Made by a program: the position numbers and the translations under genes. Shown here piece after piece: positions 21,851 through 64,000 of a stretch of DNA of 64,000 nucleotides. The notes under the pieces were generated by a model. The model saw nothing but the letters and a program-made list of their open reading frames with translations, did no database searches and was not told the origin of the DNA. The DNA is taken from NCBI GenBank assembly GCA_024679065.1, contig JAGIQG010000017.1, forward strand, positions 28,458,001-28,522,000, given 5' to 3'. Positions within the stretch are counted from its first letter, which is position 1, and every line of letters starts with the position of its first letter. The DNA is from Sphyrna mokarran. Taxonomy: Eukaryota.

Positions 21851-23308
21851 TTTTTGTCATTACATTAGGTGAAATTGCACTATGTGGTACTCGTGTCTGA
21901 ACATGATGAAGTCTTTGTCTGCAATTTTAATGGAGGCTTTAACCCATTTGAAACAAACCTGTTAATACCACAAAAGTAGTGGACAGTTGAGCTTTACAGC
22001 ATGTTAGCACATTTGCATTCTAATATTAGACTGTAATTTAATTCTGATGATTCTTTGCACAACACATTAAACCATCAAACGCTATCCCATTATTTTGAGT
22101 TATTAATGTTTATGATGTACCATTAAAACCTTAAAATGTTTGAAAACTCATTTACAATGGAATGAATCTTAAAGAAAGGGGAACCAACAAAGTTATTTGA
22201 GGTTTGAGTTTATTTTTATTGTATAAATTATGTTACTTAATGAACACTGTATTCCATTGTAAGCAACAGAAAGCTATGCACTCTATTCCTTAATCAGTTT
22301 GCAAGAAATATATTAAAAACATAAGCTAAGGAAGAGAAAATAAATGCAGATATAAAATAAATCTGTCTGATGATTTTGAAATGAGTGTATAAGTTGAGTA
22401 GCACCTTTGTTGCTATGTCAGGAGTTGTGGCAGTTATTGGCCTGTACAGCTGAATCTGGGATATGTCATACATCAGCTCATTTTCATAGATGATCCATTG
22501 ATACAGATTGTGCATTAAACAGAGGTACTGTTTACAGATTAATGTATGTGCCTGAAGATTACAGCATCAGACTTGGAAGCAGGAGGTAAGATTCAAAGTG
22601 GATCACTTAGTTCCCTGTCCAGGTAGCTTCATTGAATGGCTCATGCTGCAGGAAGGTCATTAACCTGACTACACTAACTTGCTTATGAGAGGCAAATTCA
22701 TAAAAATAGGAACAGAGGTCATTGTACTTAATCTGTAGCTCCTAATTTCCAGTCTTCAAAATGTGTTAATGTCACCAATCAAGTGCACTGATTTCCATAT
22801 CCAATCTTTATTCCTGTAGAATAAGGTTCCACTGTGGGAGGTGCCAAATTGTACAATTTATCCCAAGGTTTGTGTCTATTTGAAACCCAAGAATGTTGAA
22901 ATCAAACTTGAGTCTACTGCCCAAGGCGGTTGTTATTGTCTGAACATCATAATACTTTCTGTAGACATTGGACCTTCTGCAAAATCACGATCAGTGGATT
23001 CGCCATTGGATATATCCCAAGTTCTTCAATAACTAAAACTGGTGAGACACAAGTAGTGTTTCTCTTTTAAATACAACTTCATGAACTCCAGGTCTCAGCA
23101 CTATGCAGCTCATGATGGATATCACGCACATGTGTTCACTGCTTCATTTGGTGACCCTAGCTCAAACTGAATTAATAAATCCTCTAAGATGGAGGCATAT
23201 GTGCTGGTACTTTGCTATAGAAAAAACTAACGATTCTGAGTGCTTTGAGGTAACTGCTTTGGAACTGCTACTTGTGTCTGTGACTTCTTCTTTGAGGACT
23301 TATATTAT

Positions 23309-26300: not shown

Positions 26301-27420
26301 GTGTCCAATATCCTCAGTGTCTCTCTCGTGTAGGTTGCCAACTTTGCTGGAGTATTGCTGAGCCTCATTGGTTGCAGACTTCCTTGAAAATACTTGTAGG
26401 TTTGTTCACCTACTACTGTGGCCAAAGCAACTGTGCTGACTTTCACAGTTAATAGACACCCATTAACCATAAGGGAGATTTTGATGGGAGGATGTCTTAT
26501 TTAACTTTACAATGTTGAGCTGATAAACTTCAGATTTGTCATCTGAACCTTCCTCTATCTTGTTCACTAGACTCCTCATTTTTCTTTCTGGAAACTAGGT
26601 GCAGACTATCTGACTCTGCATCTGGCTTGTATGTGGCCCTTCCATTCTTGCAGATGGTCTCCCCCATGATGGTAACACTTAACTCCTTATAGCTGACGAT
26701 TTCTCTTCTTTTTCCTGAACCTTCATTACTGGTATTCTGAGCAAGCCACTGTCTTCCACTAATGTTGTTCATCTCACCCTGCATGCCTTGCAGTTCAAAA
26801 GCTTTGTTCAGGGCTCTCTGTCACTTGAGCCAAGAGATATGATTTATCTATTTGAACAGCTCTGTTTATGGTCAGTTCATAATCTCCACAAATCCTCACT
26901 GGTCTGATTTTAGCACTAGGACTATTGGCACAGTCCACTCCAAGAACTTATACCAATTTACCAATTTAGTCATTCATAGGTCTTCCAATCACTTCAACTT
27001 CACTTCAACGTTTTGCTGTAAAGCGTAAGGCACAGACCGAGCCCTAAAAAATGTTGGCATTGATCCAGGGTTCACATAAATATTATAGTTTCTGCGAGCA
27101 GTTTCTTTTGAATGTTCCAACTGTTAATATCATATATGAGGCAATCACATAACACATCACTTAAGCATGGGCCAAATGCACAGTATTTCACCATTCTGTG
27201 AAGCCAAGTGACAGAAGCAGAAACTGTCTTCCCGAGTGGAATTTATATCACTGTATAATAATGGAGAGTCAGGAATTGTAGTGCTCACTTACTAGTGTGT
27301 CTAGCCAGTCAAATGATCTTGTGTTCAGTGCTTCTGAGTTGCAAAGTTTCTTACAAGCTTATAAACTGAGGGCTGCAGTGAATAAAATAACTTTCTGCTT
27401 TTCTTTGACAGTATTTCATA
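23309..27420 (-). mobile_element. Degenerate Ty3/Gypsy element (gag-PR-RT-RH-IN-3'LTR); 5' LTR not found
   Basis: LTR at 23309-23561 with TGTAGC...GCTACA termini and a purine tract upstream on the minus strand. Integrase SDNGTAFTAEDF at ~24375-24410, RNase H YSQIDKENLAVMFTVKKFHQY..DHKPL, protease-region VNG...LATYT...GQDWL. Confidence 0.9.
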
Positions 27421-27509
27421 GAATGGTCATTTGGCCCATCCTTAGGTGATGTGTTATGTGATCGTTTCATGTATGATATTAACAGTTGGAACATTCAAAA
27501 GAAACTGCC

Positions 27510-29050
27510 TTTATTCTCATTCTATTCATGTATTTGTCAGTCACTATTGGATCTGCTTCTACCTCCTTCCCCGGCAACAAGTTCCAGGCACTCACCACTG
27601 TCTGTGTACAAACCTTTAAACCTTGCCACTCATACCTTAGAACTGTGTCCTTAGAAACTGAACCTTCCATCCTGACTATCTACTCTGTCCATGTCTCTCA
27701 TAATTTCTTCTATGCTTCAGGGACTTTATTCCCTGAAGCATAGAAGAATGAGGGGAGATTTGATAGAGGTATATAAGATTTTTATGGGTATAGATAGAGT
27801 GAATACAAGCAGGATTTTTCCACTGAGGCTAGGGGAGAAAAAAAAAGCAGAGGGCATGGGTTAGGGGTGAAAGGAGAAAAATTTAAAGGGAATATTGTGG
27901 GGGAGGGGTGGGGAGGCTTCTTCACGCAGAGTGGAGGGAGTATGGAATGAGCTGCCAAATAAAATGGTAACTGCGGGGTTACTTTTAACATTTAAGAAAA
28001 ACTTGGATGGGTTCATGGATGAGAGGGCTATGGTCCATGTGCAGGTCAGTGCGACTAGGCAAAAAATGGTTTGGCGCAGACAAGAATGACCAAAAGGCCT
28101 GTTTCTGAGCTGTAATTTTCTATGGTTTCACAAAACCATGTTGCTTCTCACTAATACGTTGACTTATTTCCAAGTGGGAATAAATCCTGTGTTGAAGAAT
28201 CCTCTTCAATAATTTGCCTTTCACTGATGTAATTACCTGAATTATTCTTGCTATCCTTCTTAAAGAAAGAAACAACATTACTACTCTCCTACTGAAACAT
28301 CGATCAGCTGCCCAGGCTCATTCCCCAATAAAAGGCCCAATATGACCACTTCTATAGTTGGATTATCTACATACTGTTTCAAGAAGCCCTTCTGGGTGCT
28401 CGTTACAAACTCTGTCCCATCCACACCCCTAGCACTGAGTCCCAGTCAATACAGGGAAAGTTAAAATCTCCTACCACAACCCTGTTACTTTTACACATTA
28501 CCAAAATTTGCCTACATATTTGTTCCTCTATCTCCCACTAGCAATTGGATGTCCTACAATAAATCTCCAACATTGTGACTACACCCTTCCTAATTCCTGA
28601 GCTCTACCCATATTGCCTCACTGTCTGAGCCATCCAAGGTGTCCTTCCGCAGTACAGATGTGATATTCTCCTTAACCAGTAGAGCAAATTCCCTCTCTAT
28701 CCCACCTGAAACATCTGTATTCTGGAACGTCACGCTGCCAATTCTATCCTCCCCCTAACCAAATCTCTGTAGTGGCAACAACATCATAGTTCCTTGTGCT
28801 AATCCAAGCTTTAAGCTCATCTGCCTTATCTGTACACTTCCCGCATTGAAACAAATGCATTTCAATTCACCAGACCCGCTTTGATTAGCAACCCCACTCT
28901 GCCTGCTATTTCTCTGAGTCTTATTGGCCCTGTACTCCGGTTCCCCTTCAGCTAATTCAGCTTTGCTTTGATTCCCACTCCCCTGTCAAATTAATTTAAA
29001 TCCTCCTGTGTGACACTAGCAAACCTCCCAGCCAGAATATTTATGCCCTT
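27510..29050. mobile_element. Cluster of CR1 fragments (minus ~27510-27704; plus ~27724-28128; minus ~28135-29050)
   Basis: Plus copy encodes RRMRGDLIEVYK and RVEGVWNELP and ends in ttctatggtt. The minus pieces resemble CR1 3' and endonuclease regions. Confidence 0.75.
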
Positions 29051-30289: not shown

Positions 30290-30880
30290 ACCCCAGGACC
30301 TCAGCATAAAATTCAAGGCTGAGACTCCAGTGCAGTACTGAGGAAGTACTGGATACAAATAATTGTGTGATACAATTTTGAAAAAGAGCTGGAAAATCAT
30401 TCCTGGTGTCCTACCAATTTTATTCTCTCAATTAACATCACAAAACTAGATTATCTGGCCATTATTGTATAACTTCTTGTGGGACCTTACTGTGTGTACC
30501 TTGGCCACTGTGCTTTCTACTTTACATGTGGAGATGCTGATGTTGGACTGGGTAAACATGGTAAGAAGTCTCACAACACCAGGTTAAAATACAACAGGTT
30601 TATTTGGTACCAAAAACCACTAGCTTTTGGAGAGCTGCTCCTTACCTGATGAAGGTAAGGTAGCTCCTTACCTGATGAAGATAAGGAGCAGTGCTTCAAA
30701 AGCTAGTGGTTTTTGCTACCAAATAAACCTGTTGTACTTTAACCTGGTATTGTGAGACTTCTTACAGTCTTTCTACTTTACTACAGTGACTGCACTTTAA
30801 AAGTACTTCATTCACAGTAAAACAATTTGGGATGTCCTGTGATCATGAAAGACATTATATAAATGCATATCACCTTCTTC
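30290..30880 (+). mobile_element. Deu-domain SINE interrupted by the palindromic element
   Basis: ctccagtgcagtactgagg...gattatctggccatt... resumes after 30781 with acagtgactgcactttaaaagtacttca...tatataaatgca. Confidence 0.8.
30526..30768. mobile_element. Palindromic Penelope-derived short element, copy 1
   Basis: ~84-bp inverted arms (30561-30644 and 30682-30765). 13-bp TSD ctttctactttac at 30513-30525 and 30769-30781. Central CTGATGA motifs. Confidence 0.85.
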
Positions 30881-41088: not shown

Positions 41089-42060
41089 ACAGCATGATCT
41101 TACCAAAAAATTTCTAAGTGACAAATGAACATGAAAACAGGAAAGAATCAAACTTTTAAATAGAATCTTACCTCATTCTGTCAAAAAAAGTGGCAAATCT
41201 GTTTTCCGCTAGCAGGGGGAAGGACAGGGCCTACATTCCCTGAAAGCTTGGAGAAACCAGCAGCAGATAACCACTGCGCATGCCAATTTCCTCCCTCTCC
41301 CATGCACCATGGCCAAAACAGAACATAGAACATAGAACACTACAGCACAGAACAGGCCCTTCGGCCTTCGATGTTGCGCCGACCAATATAAAAAGCAATG
41401 CCCCTCCAAACTAAACCATTCCCTTCTCTTCCATATACTTATCAACTAACCTCTTAAACGCCACCAAACTTGGCGCATCTACAACTGCTGCAGGCAGGGC
41501 ATTCCACTCCCGAACCACCCTTTGGGTAAAGAACCTACCTCTGACATCCGTCCTATAACTATCACCCCTTAATTTAAAGCTGTGTCCTCTCGTGCTAGCT
41601 TTCTCCATCCTAGGATGGAGAAAAATCCTAAAATGTCTTCCAGCTGCCAATTACAGCATGTTCTTGCGAGGTAAGTTCGCAAGGATCGGGCAATCGCTTT
41701 TGCGGAGCACGCAGCATTCACTTCCCACTCACTGTTGCAGAGTGCACAGCATGTGTCTCCCTCCAATCGTTGTTGCAAGTACGCAGTGTACCCCCGCCCC
41801 TCAAGCAATACCAGATGGCCCTGCCGAGTGACTGATGGGCATTGCCAGTGCACCAGTTGCCAGTGCACCAGGCAGGCACTGACAGGAAACCAGGCAGGCG
41901 ATGCCAAGCTGGCACTGCCCAAGGGGCACCCCCCTGCTTCCAATCTCCCAGGGAGAGGTGGCTCAATGGCCTCCAGTCCTACCAGGGAAGCCATCACGAC
42001 AGGTATGAATGGTCCTTGTAGGACTTTAAGGCCTTCTACCATGTCAAACATTTAAAAGCT
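41089..42060. mobile_element. GC-rich MITE-like element hosting a CR1 insertion
   Basis: Left end gcatgatcttaccaaaaaatttctaagtg; interior ggcactgcccaagggg is shared with the 17.8-17.9 kb element. Confidence 0.6.
41317..41615 (-). mobile_element. CR1 LINE 3' end, young family
   Basis: Near-identical to 50300-50598; (catagaa)n tail. Confidence 0.95.
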
Positions 42061-50299: not shown

Positions 50300-51322
50300 A
50301 CATAGAACATAGAACATAGAACATTACAGCACAGAACAGGCCCTTCGGCCTTCGATGTTGTGCCGACCAAAATAAAAAGCAATGCCCCTCCAAACTAAAC
50401 CATTCCCTTCTCTTCCATATACTTATCAATTAACCTCTTAAACGCCACCAAACTTGGCGCATCTACAACAGCTGCAGGCAGGGCATTCCACTCCCTAATC
50501 ACTCTTTGAGTAAAGAACCTACCTCTGATATCCGTCCTATAACTCATACCCCTTAATTTAAAGCTGTGTCCCCTCGTGCTAGCTTTCTCCATCCTAGGAA
50601 AAAGGCTATCACTGTCCACCCTATCTAAACCTCTAATCATCTTATATGCTTCAATAAGATCCCCTCTTAGCCGCCTCCTTTCTAACGAAAACAACCTCAA
50701 ATCCTTCAACCTCTCTTCATAGGACCTGCCCTCCATACCAGGCAACATCCTGGTAAACCTCCTCTGTACCCTCTCCAATGCCTCCACATCTTTCTTATAA
50801 TGTGGGGACCAGAACTGCACACAATACTCCAAGTGCGGCCGCACTAGAGTTTTGTACAGTTGCAACATGATGCTGCGGCTCCTAAATTCAATCCCCCTAC
50901 CAATAAAAGCTAAGACTCCATATGCCTTCTTAACAACTTTATCCACTTGACTGCCTACTTTCAGGGATCTATTGACACATACACCAAGATCCTTCTGTTC
51001 CTCAACACTATTAAGAGCCCTACCATTAGCCCTATACTCTACACATTTATTGTTCCTGCCAAAGTGCATTACCTCACACTTTTCCACATTAAACTCCATT
51101 TGCCACCTCTCGGCCCAGCTCTGCAACTTGTCCAAGTCACTCTGTAAACTATAACACCCCTCTTCACTATCTACCACTCCACCGACTTTAGTGTCATCTG
51201 CAAATTTACTGATCCATCCCTCAATACCCTCATCCAGATCATTTATAAAAATTACAAACAGCAGGGGCCCCAAAACAGACCCCTGAGGCACACCACTTGT
51301 CACCGATCGCTTGTCACTTGTG
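50300..51322 (-). mobile_element. CR1 LINE, 5'-truncated (~1 kb), with an uninterrupted RT C-terminal frame
   Basis: SGVPQGSVLGPLLFVIFINDL, KFADDTKV, LYKTLVRPHLEYCVQFWSP; (catagaa)3 tail. The ORF's first ~36 aa come from flanking DNA. Confidence 0.97.
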
Positions 51323-61100: not shown

Positions 61101-63053
61101 GCTTGGGAAAATAAAGGTAGCCAAAGCTAAGATTTCCATTAACCACAATGCTACACCTAAGTACTTTATAGTGAAACCAATTCCACACTCCCTAATGGAA
61201 AAGATAGAATGAGAACTGCAAGGTCTGGAAAAGTTGGGCATAGTAAGCCCCATAGTTTACAGAATGGGCTGCACTTGTTCTTCCGTCCTTAAGCTGGATA
61301 AGTCAGTCAAATTTTGTGGAGATTATCAATTTACAGTTAATAGGGTTTCTAAACTTGACAGATATCCCATGCCCTGGAATTAAAACCTGTACGCCTGGTT
61401 AATTGGGGACCAAACATTTTCAAAGTTGGTCATAAGCCAAAGTACATCTCCAACTTGAATTGGACGAGCTTTCCCAAAAGTACGTAACAATCAATTACCC
61501 CATATGCAACAAACGAGCACATTCGTCTACCTTTGGGCTCTCATCTGCATGCATCATTTTTCAATGGATCATTGGGAATATGCTCTGAAGAATACCTCAG
61601 GTAACAGTTTACCTGGATGATTTCTTGATGACAGGAACTTTGGAGCATAAACACCTATATAAACCTGAACAAAATCTTACGGTGATTTTCAGATGTTGGA
61701 GTATGCGTTAAAAGGGAAAAATGTATCTTCCAGGTAAATGGATTGATCTACTGGGCTATCAGGTGGAAGGCAAAGGCTTTCATCTGGTGGAAGACAAGAT
61801 GAGGAAGCATTAATTCCTAAGAACCCCATTGAATTGATATCCTTCCTGGGATTAGTGAATTACTATGTAAAGTTTATTCCAAATCAGCTTCCTTGCTGGC
61901 CCACATGGATGTCCTACTATGGAAATATCTACAGTGGTCTTGGATGGTGTCACAGCTACAGGCTTTCAATAGATTAAACAGCAACCTTTGTCCTCTAATT
62001 TATTGATTCACTTTGACCTTAAGGTCTATAAAGGACTTTATCTTGACATGTGATGCCGCTCCTTAAGGGTTGGGGCAATACTAGTACATCACTGGAGAGA
62101 TGGGATAGAGAAGCCTATTGTGTATGTATCTAGAATCCTCTCAGATACTGAGTGGAAAGATATTCCAGATCGAGAAAGAGGGATTGGCAGTTGTTTTCAG
62201 CATTATAAAACTCCGTCAATCTTTCTACGGGAGATGGTTTTTCAGTGACTGATCGTAAACCAGTCTTGGGACATTTTAAGGAAGACAAGGTAATTGTCCC
62301 TACTGCCTTCATCCTGATACGGTGTTGGGTCTTGTTACTGGAGACTTATGAATGCCTCCTAGAGCATTAGCCCAGGATCTGGATAGCTAATACTGATGCA
62401 AAGAGTTGTTTGCATTGGTTGGAAGTCCAGCTTCACCATCAGCTATGGAAGAGCTTGTGATGACCCTCAATTTGTTAAACAGCATATGGGAATATGCGAA
62501 GCAAATCAAGGCCTGGGCACAAAAGAACCTAGTCCTGTCTAAATTAAAAAAAAACATAATACTGTATGGAGGATTCACAAGACAGCCCTCAGATGAAATG
62601 AAACATTACTGGATAAAGAAAAACGAGCTCATGTTGAGGGTGGTATCAACCTCTCTGGGATTTCTGCGTAGATGTCCATCACCAAGTGACATCCAATATT
62701 TATGGCACAACACATAGCCACTCTGGGATTTTAAAGATGCCAGCCAGGAGCAATGTACGATGGTGGCCCAGTCTTGATGCAAACATTAGTGACTTGGTTA
62801 GACAGTGTGAAACAGGCTAAGAAAATGAAAAACCCCCTCACTAAGCTTTCCTAAATCCATGGGAATGGCCTAGTAGGCCCAGGATGCAAGTACACATTGA
62901 CTTTGCTGTGCTTATTTTGGGCTCCACGTTCTTGATTATGTTCAACGTGATTCCCAAATGATTGGAGGTACATTGTATGAATTCCACCACTTTCACATAT
63001 TAACACTGAGAAACTGCACAAATTTTCTGCACTTACAGGATATCTAAAGTCTT

Positions 63054-63168
63054 GGGCCAGAATTTTACCCAAATTGAGGTGGGCTCACAGAAGGGAATTC
63101 TCCATTGGCCTTGGGCAGGGTTTTACGAGCCTGAGCATTGCCTGAGCAATGTTGCAAAATACTGGCCC
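63054..63168. mobile_element. 115-bp MITE inserted in the Gypsy integrase
   Basis: TIRs gggccagaatttt / aaaatactggccc (12 of 13 match); interrupts the integrase KVL|VSDN motif. Confidence 0.75.
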
Positions 63169-63575
63169 TGGTCTCTGATAATAGCATTGCCTTTACTAGT
63201 ATGGGTTTCAGAAGTTAATGCTTTCCAATGGAAGCAAACACATTAGGATACCACACTAACACCTGTCATCAAATGGGTTGGTTGAATGAGTAGTGCAGAC
63301 TTTTAAGCATAAAGATGCAAGGTCCATTGAGACCAAACTGGTGTGATTTTTTATTCAAGTACAGGATACCCCTCACGTAATGACAGGAACCGCCCTAGCA
63401 GAATTATTAATGAGATGATTAAACTTACTTTTCCTAAACCTGGCTCTTTGCCAGAAGAAAACTATGACTCTGTAAGAACATGATGTGGAGATGCTGGCGT
63501 TGGATTGGGGTAAACTCAGTAAGAAGTCTCACAACACCAGGTTGAAGTCCAACAAGTTTATTTGGTAGCAAAAGC

Positions 63576-63610
63576 CATTAGCTTTCAGAGCATTGCCTCT
63601 TCGTCAGATC
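63576..63610 (-). ncRNA. Minimal hammerhead ribozyme-like motif on the opposite strand
   Basis: CUGACGA-AGAG(GCAAUG)CUCU-GAAA-GCUA on the minus strand. Confidence 0.5.
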
Positions 63611-63619
63611 TTCGTCACA

Positions 63620-63655
63620 AACCTGATGAAGGGACAGCGCTCTGAAAGCTAGTGT
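63620..63655 (+). ncRNA. Minimal type I hammerhead ribozyme-like motif
   Basis: CUGAUGA-AGGG(ACAGCG)CUCU-GAAA-GCUA: catalytic boxes, a 4-bp stem II and a palindromic AGCU helix III. Stem I is weak in this copy. Confidence 0.55.
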
Positions 63656-64000
63656 CTTTTGCAACCAAATAAACCTGTTGGACTTTAACCTGGTGTTGTG
63701 AGGCTTCTCACTCTGTAAGAATAGACAGACCATTCAAAACTGGCAATCCAGTCCATGTGAGGAACTTCGGGGATAGCCTCAGTTGGCTTTCCAGAATTAT
63801 AACAGAAAATGGGACCCATATACAAAGTTCAAGTACGGAGCAAGATTGTCAGAAAACACCTGGACCATTTCTGGAGTAGGGAGTCTGTGCCAATGCATGC
63901 CTCATGAGCAGCCACAGCTTGACCATTGCTAGCCTCAAGCCACAAGTGATGTCAAGTCTTTGCAGGCCCCTTTGGATAAAGTAAAGTACGTTTATTTATT

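Follow-up and report, generated by a model that had tools for sequence, protein, structure and literature searches.

Penelope-like elements (PLEs) are the closest relatives of the telomerase reverse transcriptase (RT). An inverted 5'-truncated copy with a one-sided tail of 30-40 bp is a layout that has been described for them (PMC8557442, Figure 2; Pen2a_Av, PMC3846280; Penelope of D. virilis, PMC2377424), and how they make their inverted and tandem ends is called unexplained in the available text of PMC8557442. As far as these sources are accessible, the complex insertions of endonuclease-bearing (EN+) PLEs comprise head-to-head arms, a tail at one end, a target-site duplication (TSD), a pseudo-LTR (pLTR) tail that extends to the ORF start and variable 5' truncation. 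Metazoan PLEs also carry minimal type-I hammerhead ribozymes with a CUGANGA box, an unpaired nucleotide before helix II, a G10.1-C11.1 pair, a palindromic helix III and a 4-bp helix I, in many covarying sub-lineages, and pairs of minimal hammerheads on opposite strands, 100-700 bp apart, were reported in 2014 (Cervera and De la Pena, PMC4209133). For Poseidon of Anolis carolinensis (PAc), the accessible part of Frangieh et al. (2024; PMC11167929) describes two internal sites of RT initiation in vitro, between which the tail lies, cleavage and extension of both strands, uncut RNA as template and a predicted dimer. Animal non-LTR retrozymes are small, non-coding and related to pLTRs, with a type-I hammerhead and TSDs of more than 4 bp; in the available text they consist of head-to-tail repeats with same-strand hammerheads from which circular RNA is released (PMC7229834; bioRxiv 10.64898/2026.07.22.740005).

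The window, i.e., the whole stretch of 64,000 nucleotides of Sphyrna mokarran DNA that was analysed, contains two elements with all the listed properties of EN+ complex insertions, except that neither arm extends beyond the leader. Their hammerhead is of the metazoan PLE type, whereas helix I is truncated and the cores appear sequestered in both copies. The ORF of PAc starts inside the hammerhead and its RT sites lie 111-118 nt into the ORF; here, in contrast, the ATG is found about 100 nt past the hammerhead, at the end of the tail. Unlike retrozymes, the window copies are arranged head-to-head and are not amplified as a unit. With leader coordinates counted backward from the last base of the tail (= 0), the features are as follows.

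30513-30525, plus strand: left TSD of copy 1, 13 bp
30526-30768: copy 1, flanked by 13-bp direct repeats
30526-30643, minus strand: tailed arm of copy 1, leader -122 to about -4, ending short of the CUGANGA box
30644-30682, no strand: centre of copy 1, with a direct duplication of about 17 nt
30667-30768, plus strand: untailed arm of copy 1, GAAA box decayed to AAAA
30769-30781, plus strand: right TSD of copy 1, 13 bp
62054-64000 (bounds approximate), plus strand: host of copy 2, resembling a decayed LTR-retrotransposon pol with RNase H and integrase remnants (weak Pfam matches)
63467-63478, plus strand: left TSD of copy 2, ACTCTGTAAGAA, 12 bp
63479-63709: copy 2, flanked by 12-bp direct repeats
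63479-63607, minus strand: tailed arm of copy 2, leader -128 to the ORF start codon
63479-63517, minus strand: Penelope tail of about 40 nt, in the tailed arm of copy 2 only
63579-63607, minus strand: minimal hammerhead core of copy 2, helix II decayed and 5' strand of helix I missing
63608-63620, no strand: junction filler of copy 2, with an 8-nt duplication of the adjoining arm end
63621-63709, plus strand: untailed arm of copy 2, leader about -130 to about -40
63623-63651, plus strand: minimal hammerhead core of copy 2, helix I down to 2 bp
63710-63721, plus strand: right TSD of copy 2, ACTCTGTAAGAA, 12 bp

A preliminary description had reported two elements of about 240 bp with a common left end, a hairpin fold and flanking direct repeats of 12-13 bp, and these observations hold. 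Both copies begin with ATGTGGAGATGCTG; the CAT of copy 2 (63479-63481) is the ATG of the ORF read on the minus strand. The inverted arms measure 90 nt (87% identity) in copy 2 and 107 nt (86%) in copy 1, and the predicted fold of copy 2 has an energy of -139.4 kcal/mol (z -14.8; 0/200 shuffles as good). The same description had placed the copies in a SINE and a Gypsy integrase. For the host of copy 2, the Pfam matches to Integrase_H2C2 and RT_RNaseH are weak, below the cut-offs, and consistent with a decayed LTR-retrotransposon pol; the host of copy 1 is repetitive sequence, an assignment that goes no further than repeat. Beside the window, a third palindrome of 240 bp (G000:C738, block position 22324) carries a central direct duplication like that of copy 1 and belongs to a different sub-lineage.

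Each element is a head-to-head pair of 5' leaders (pLTRs) from an abundant PLE that encodes an RT and a GIY-YIG endonuclease. A first-look search of the 2.77-Gb genome yielded 6,966 candidates, of which 40 were scored (80-86% identity), and the centres visibly differ among 30 fetched loci. When 30 loci were chosen by the sequence just upstream of the hammerhead, the stretch that they have in common upstream ran from 2 to about 1,380 nt and entered an ORF with an RT, a CX4CxxC linker and a GIY-YIG domain. One locus (L170) combines RVT_1 (E 1.6e-4) and GIY-YIG (E 1.8e-4), both below the Pfam cut-offs, in a single frame of 477 aa followed by a homologous leader. On the downstream side, the ORF starts at the last ATG of the tail: a common N-terminus follows in most of 30 loci, and three of the 30 (L273, L285 and L288) continue for about 1.3 kb to the RT region. 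The terminal sequence, as in a pLTR, recurs at the ORF start. Since the upstream sequence leads into the ORF and the ATG of the tail opens the same ORF, the arms represent the element's 5' leader, and the Penelope origin that had been suggested earlier is supported.

The clade is likely Neptune, judging from the linker and from vertebrate occurrence. The linker between RT and endonuclease (CHSNLCKTC) follows the zinc-finger-like CX2-5CxxC pattern, a Neptune feature that also occurs in Nematis and that Poseidon lacks. Two cysteines are located between the GIY and YIG parts (VVYLIRCKKGCPEAWYIG in L169 and L170), as in the CCHH motif defined for Neptune and Nematis PLEs (PMC8557442, available text). 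Neptune is favoured over Nematis because the accessible part of a survey (bioRxiv 10.64898/2026.07.22.740005) gives Neptune and Poseidon as the only clades detected in vertebrates. The family is abundant: a piece of the RT gives 23,618 first-look candidates genome-wide, and 24 clusters in 424 kb of contiguous DNA extrapolate to a rough 1.6e5 loci. A young sub-lineage (L162-L170; 94-98% alike) differs in the sequences of helices I and II and lacks a TATA-like box, and several of its copies are long head-to-head pairs with open frames of 460-480 aa. Loose contig ends from four other organisms cluster on one locus (L285:1512-1554) at the end of the tail and some 40 nt further in; from these, the two fixed outer ends appear common to related genomes.

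For a census of two-armed insertions, the first 160 loci listed from 2,125 and 725 exact leader-motif matches were taken and one duplicate was dropped, leaving 159 arms; this sample favours well-preserved copies on three contigs. An inverted partner was found for 106 of the 159 anchored arms and not for the other 53. Exactly one arm is tailed in 98 of the 106 pairs, neither in six and both in two (the counts of 106 and 98 still contain one segmental duplicate). Lengths and TSDs were scored in 112 two-armed, one-tailed insertions from anchored loci and contiguous blocks. A TSD of at least 8 bp occurs in 69 of these, 61 of them being 11-15 bp, and none was found in 43; a control with mismatched flanks gave 0/331. 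The inverted 5'-truncated copy with a one-sided tail and a TSD is thus the layout of the family (98/106; 69/112). Insertion lengths extend from under 120 bp to over 1.2 kb (59 below 225 nt, 20 at 225-255 nt, four at 255-300 nt and 29 of at least 300 nt), with arms of about 35 to about 1,900 nt that reach into the RT/endonuclease ORF. Heterogeneous ends, named in the preliminary description as a sign of mere truncation products of Penelope insertions, are indeed present at the inner side, where the arms stop at variable positions; the outer ends are fixed and follow the described Penelope tail pattern. The earlier proposal that Penelope machinery mobilised the copies is supported as well.

We consider it probable, at roughly 80%, that a PLE with an endonuclease gave rise to each element in one minimal insertion, consisting of two head-to-head copies of its leader with the hammerhead, for which likely both cut DNA ends primed RT and which likely both ran off near the RNA start. 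A staggered cut of about 11-15 nt left the TSD. Reverse transcription would begin at the two positions where the arms end, the ATG of the ORF and about 40 nt upstream of it, which may be the counterparts of the two internal RT start sites of the anole element. The two primings would be independent and would use either two RNAs or two copies of the leader within one tandem RNA, rather than a fold-back of the first cDNA. If the RNA starts at the A at -134, within the pile-up of arm ends at -127..-145, two run-off arms would amount to about 230-250 bp, and host end-joining would account for the short fillers and duplications at the joint. At the joints the gap ranges between -14 and about 60 nt, and short duplications are found there in both window copies. 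The product is likely inert debris, with a hammerhead that would have been copied uncut and is now truncated and sequestered. In L1 twin priming, both target strands prime as well and the arms are joined by microhomology or filler; the L1 arms, however, copy different parts of one RNA, whereas here the same sequence is copied from two fixed starts.

The pile-up is formed by 47 of the 97 arms that reach the zone from -127 to -145 and stop there. The density is 47 ends per 1367 nt at risk compared to 39/4644 and 8/2034 (p 2e-13), or 0.034 ends per nt in the peak versus 0.008 on its 3' side and 0.004 on its 5' side; the location had been predicted from a first batch, while the exact bounds were fixed after all arm ends had been seen. 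On its own, the second batch yields p 3e-8. The peak spans 19 nt; it is less pronounced in the partner arms, where it holds 22 of 50 arms at risk (0.023 per nt, with 0.015-0.017 in the neighbouring bins). An alignment artefact was considered as its cause and ruled out: none of 106 long arms was miscalled, and among 420 synthetic truncations 78 were called inside the peak window for 81 true ones. No excess of ends occurs at the hammerhead cleavage site (four ends per 621 nt at risk, p 0.78). Spliced copies, which would account for the peak by an intron ending at -142, are absent from the fetched loci and number 0 genome-wide for the one join tested; an intron may exist nonetheless.

The pile-up suggests run-off at the 5' end of the RNA, a reading that we prefer at roughly even odds with arrest at the hammerhead's edge. 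Read by core-promoter rules, the peak would place the transcription start at the A at -134, which is kept in 47 of 52 long arms and, in 46, forms part of an initiator-like hexamer. In 20 of the 52 arms, a TATA-like box lies at -163/-164, 29-30 nt upstream of this A; it is absent in 26, including those of the young sub-lineage. A TATA-less internal promoter is described for Penelope of D. virilis (PMC2377424, available text). With filler added, the roughly 230 nt of two run-off arms reach the size of both window copies, which would explain the class of about 240 bp. Against run-off, many arms extend past -134, so that a second template with upstream sequence would be needed. No description of the run-off idea was found in the openly accessible literature that was searched, and the accessible parts of PMC8557442, PMC3846280 and PMC2377424 contain none of a comparable pile-up in EN+ complex insertions.

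Tentatively, and at somewhat less than even chance, the palindromes of about 240 bp may be double 'strong-stop' products: a paired RT-endonuclease would prime both target strands at two fixed leader sites, both cDNAs would run off the capped 5' end near -134, the hammerhead at the mRNA start being copied in its uncut state, and the partial tandems known as pseudo-LTRs would arise when run-off cDNAs jump to another template. If true, this would explain the origin of these tandems. In ten loci (L280, L294, L296, L271, L275, L282, L289, L293, L295 and L300), a leader with its ATG and 60-160 nt of ORF start is joined to a second 5'-truncated leader in the same direction, which looks like a template jump making short partial tandems. 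In one of these (L294), two hammerheads lie on the same strand at a distance of about 190 nt, the nearest to a retrozyme-like dimer that was seen.

A plausible though somewhat less likely alternative retains the Penelope origin and attributes the pile-up to an RT halted by the hammerhead at its 5' edge or by a bound protein, or to joining at a TCA-NN-TGA near-palindrome. The peak does coincide with the 5' strand of helix I, and some joints are symmetric about -128 (e.g., L020 and L149). An RT moving 3' to 5' should nonetheless stall near -95, where it enters the structure, and no excess is found there. By eye, about 30 of 48 listed arms join a far-ending partner or flanking DNA, and matched microhomology therefore fails for most arms.

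It is unlikely that the inverted arm arose by fold-back self-priming, a route proposed for an antisense template in the available text of PMC3846280, or that the short palindromes are longer ones of which the centre was later lost. The two arms do share a sub-lineage: within one insertion they are 86% alike compared to 77% between insertions (0/5000 permutations; 43 insertions). The two arm lengths correlate (rho 0.40) and near-symmetric joints make up 13 of 98, features that could also result from later central deletion or fold-back, and one joint (L134) is centred on the helix III palindrome. Fold-back requires the tailed arm to be longer, however, while the arm reaching further 5' is the untailed one in 52 of 98 insertions, the tailed one in 33, with equality within 3 nt in 13, a pattern that fold-back of a tailed cDNA in its simple form could not produce. 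Random central deletion, in turn, would not give a peak at -134.

Direct double priming is likewise preferred over the non-autonomous, retrozyme- or MITE-like unit of the preliminary description, a palindromic master of about 240 bp that would be transcribed, self-cleave and be re-inserted by Penelope proteins: despite the recurrent size class (20/112 at 225-255 nt, four at 255-300 nt), the fixed outer ends with TSDs and the relation of animal retrozymes to pLTRs (bioRxiv 10.64898/2026.07.22.740005, available text), this reading is highly improbable given unique window centres, sizes that run continuously into the ORF, a head-to-head arrangement and cores that are truncated or buried. The centre of each window copy has one match genome-wide at up to two mismatches, so that there is no master palindrome, and the copies are independent insertions, as had been proposed. 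The sole repeated arm-end pair among 98 is a segmental duplicate; inverted segmental duplications of at least 2-3 kb span insertion and flanks in L132/L133 and L224/L225. The window elements are not a retrozyme. Two defining features were looked for: neither copy has head-to-tail repeats with a same-strand hammerhead per unit, and amplification as a unit from a master copy was not seen. A small re-mobilised sub-lineage is possible beyond the sample of about 110 of an estimated 1e5 loci.

The family itself has a genuine minimal type-I hammerhead. In 79 parsed cores, of which the boxes were required by the search, pairs 1-4 of helix II are paired in 77, 72, 75 and 61 cores, with exchanges between G-C, A-U and C-G, and those of helix I in 67, 74, 69 and 60, with an A-U to G-C exchange at pair 2; position 17 is a G in only two of the 79. 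Helices I and II, for which a lack of covariation had been raised as an objection, do covary: among 31 aligned rows, pairing holds in 85% of cells, and double changes number 21 versus 8.3 after shuffling, although the number of covarying pairs is no higher than in shuffled rows, the 31 rows being related to one another. The window copies differ from this state. Of the cores reported on both strands, those of copy 2 exist, with CUGANGA, helix II, GAAA and GCUA on either strand facing outward and the family cleavage site falling just after 63651 in the plus-strand core, while both strands of copy 1 lack an intact core. When the window is compared with Rfam, no hammerhead family is found at E<=5. 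The 5' strand of helix I was lost at the joint of copy 2, whose helix II has decayed, and opening a core there is predicted to cost 30-35 kcal/mol; a helix I together with an accessible core is found in neither copy. As the cores of copy 2 lie on opposite strands, they cannot dimerise on one RNA. With helix I lost at the junction and the core buried as well, the self-cleavage proposed for whichever strand is transcribed is improbable in these copies. According to the available texts, minimal hammerheads cleave poorly even as dimers (PMC4209133), and eight of nine frog retrozyme dimers did not cleave (bioRxiv 10.64898/2026.07.22.740005). Transcription of the locus, if it occurs, would yield long dsRNA.

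As an element this is nothing unusual, being the shortest form of an insertion layout already known for a known class, and its value lies in the footprint of run-off and double priming. A genome with in the order of 1e5 loci makes double priming, the RNA start and the in vivo use of the hammerhead testable by counting. In annotation, such palindromes should be filed as Penelope fragments and not as MITEs, microRNA hairpins or retrozymes. The window also contains a MITE-like inverted repeat of 81 nt (27098-27508; 93% identity, 249-nt spacer), unrelated to both palindromes, and, close to it, a near-perfect hairpin of about 56 nt (27690-27762). Another dispersed repeat is present in three copies with 88-95% identity and in both orientations (3671-4171, 41320-41615 and 50304-50804).
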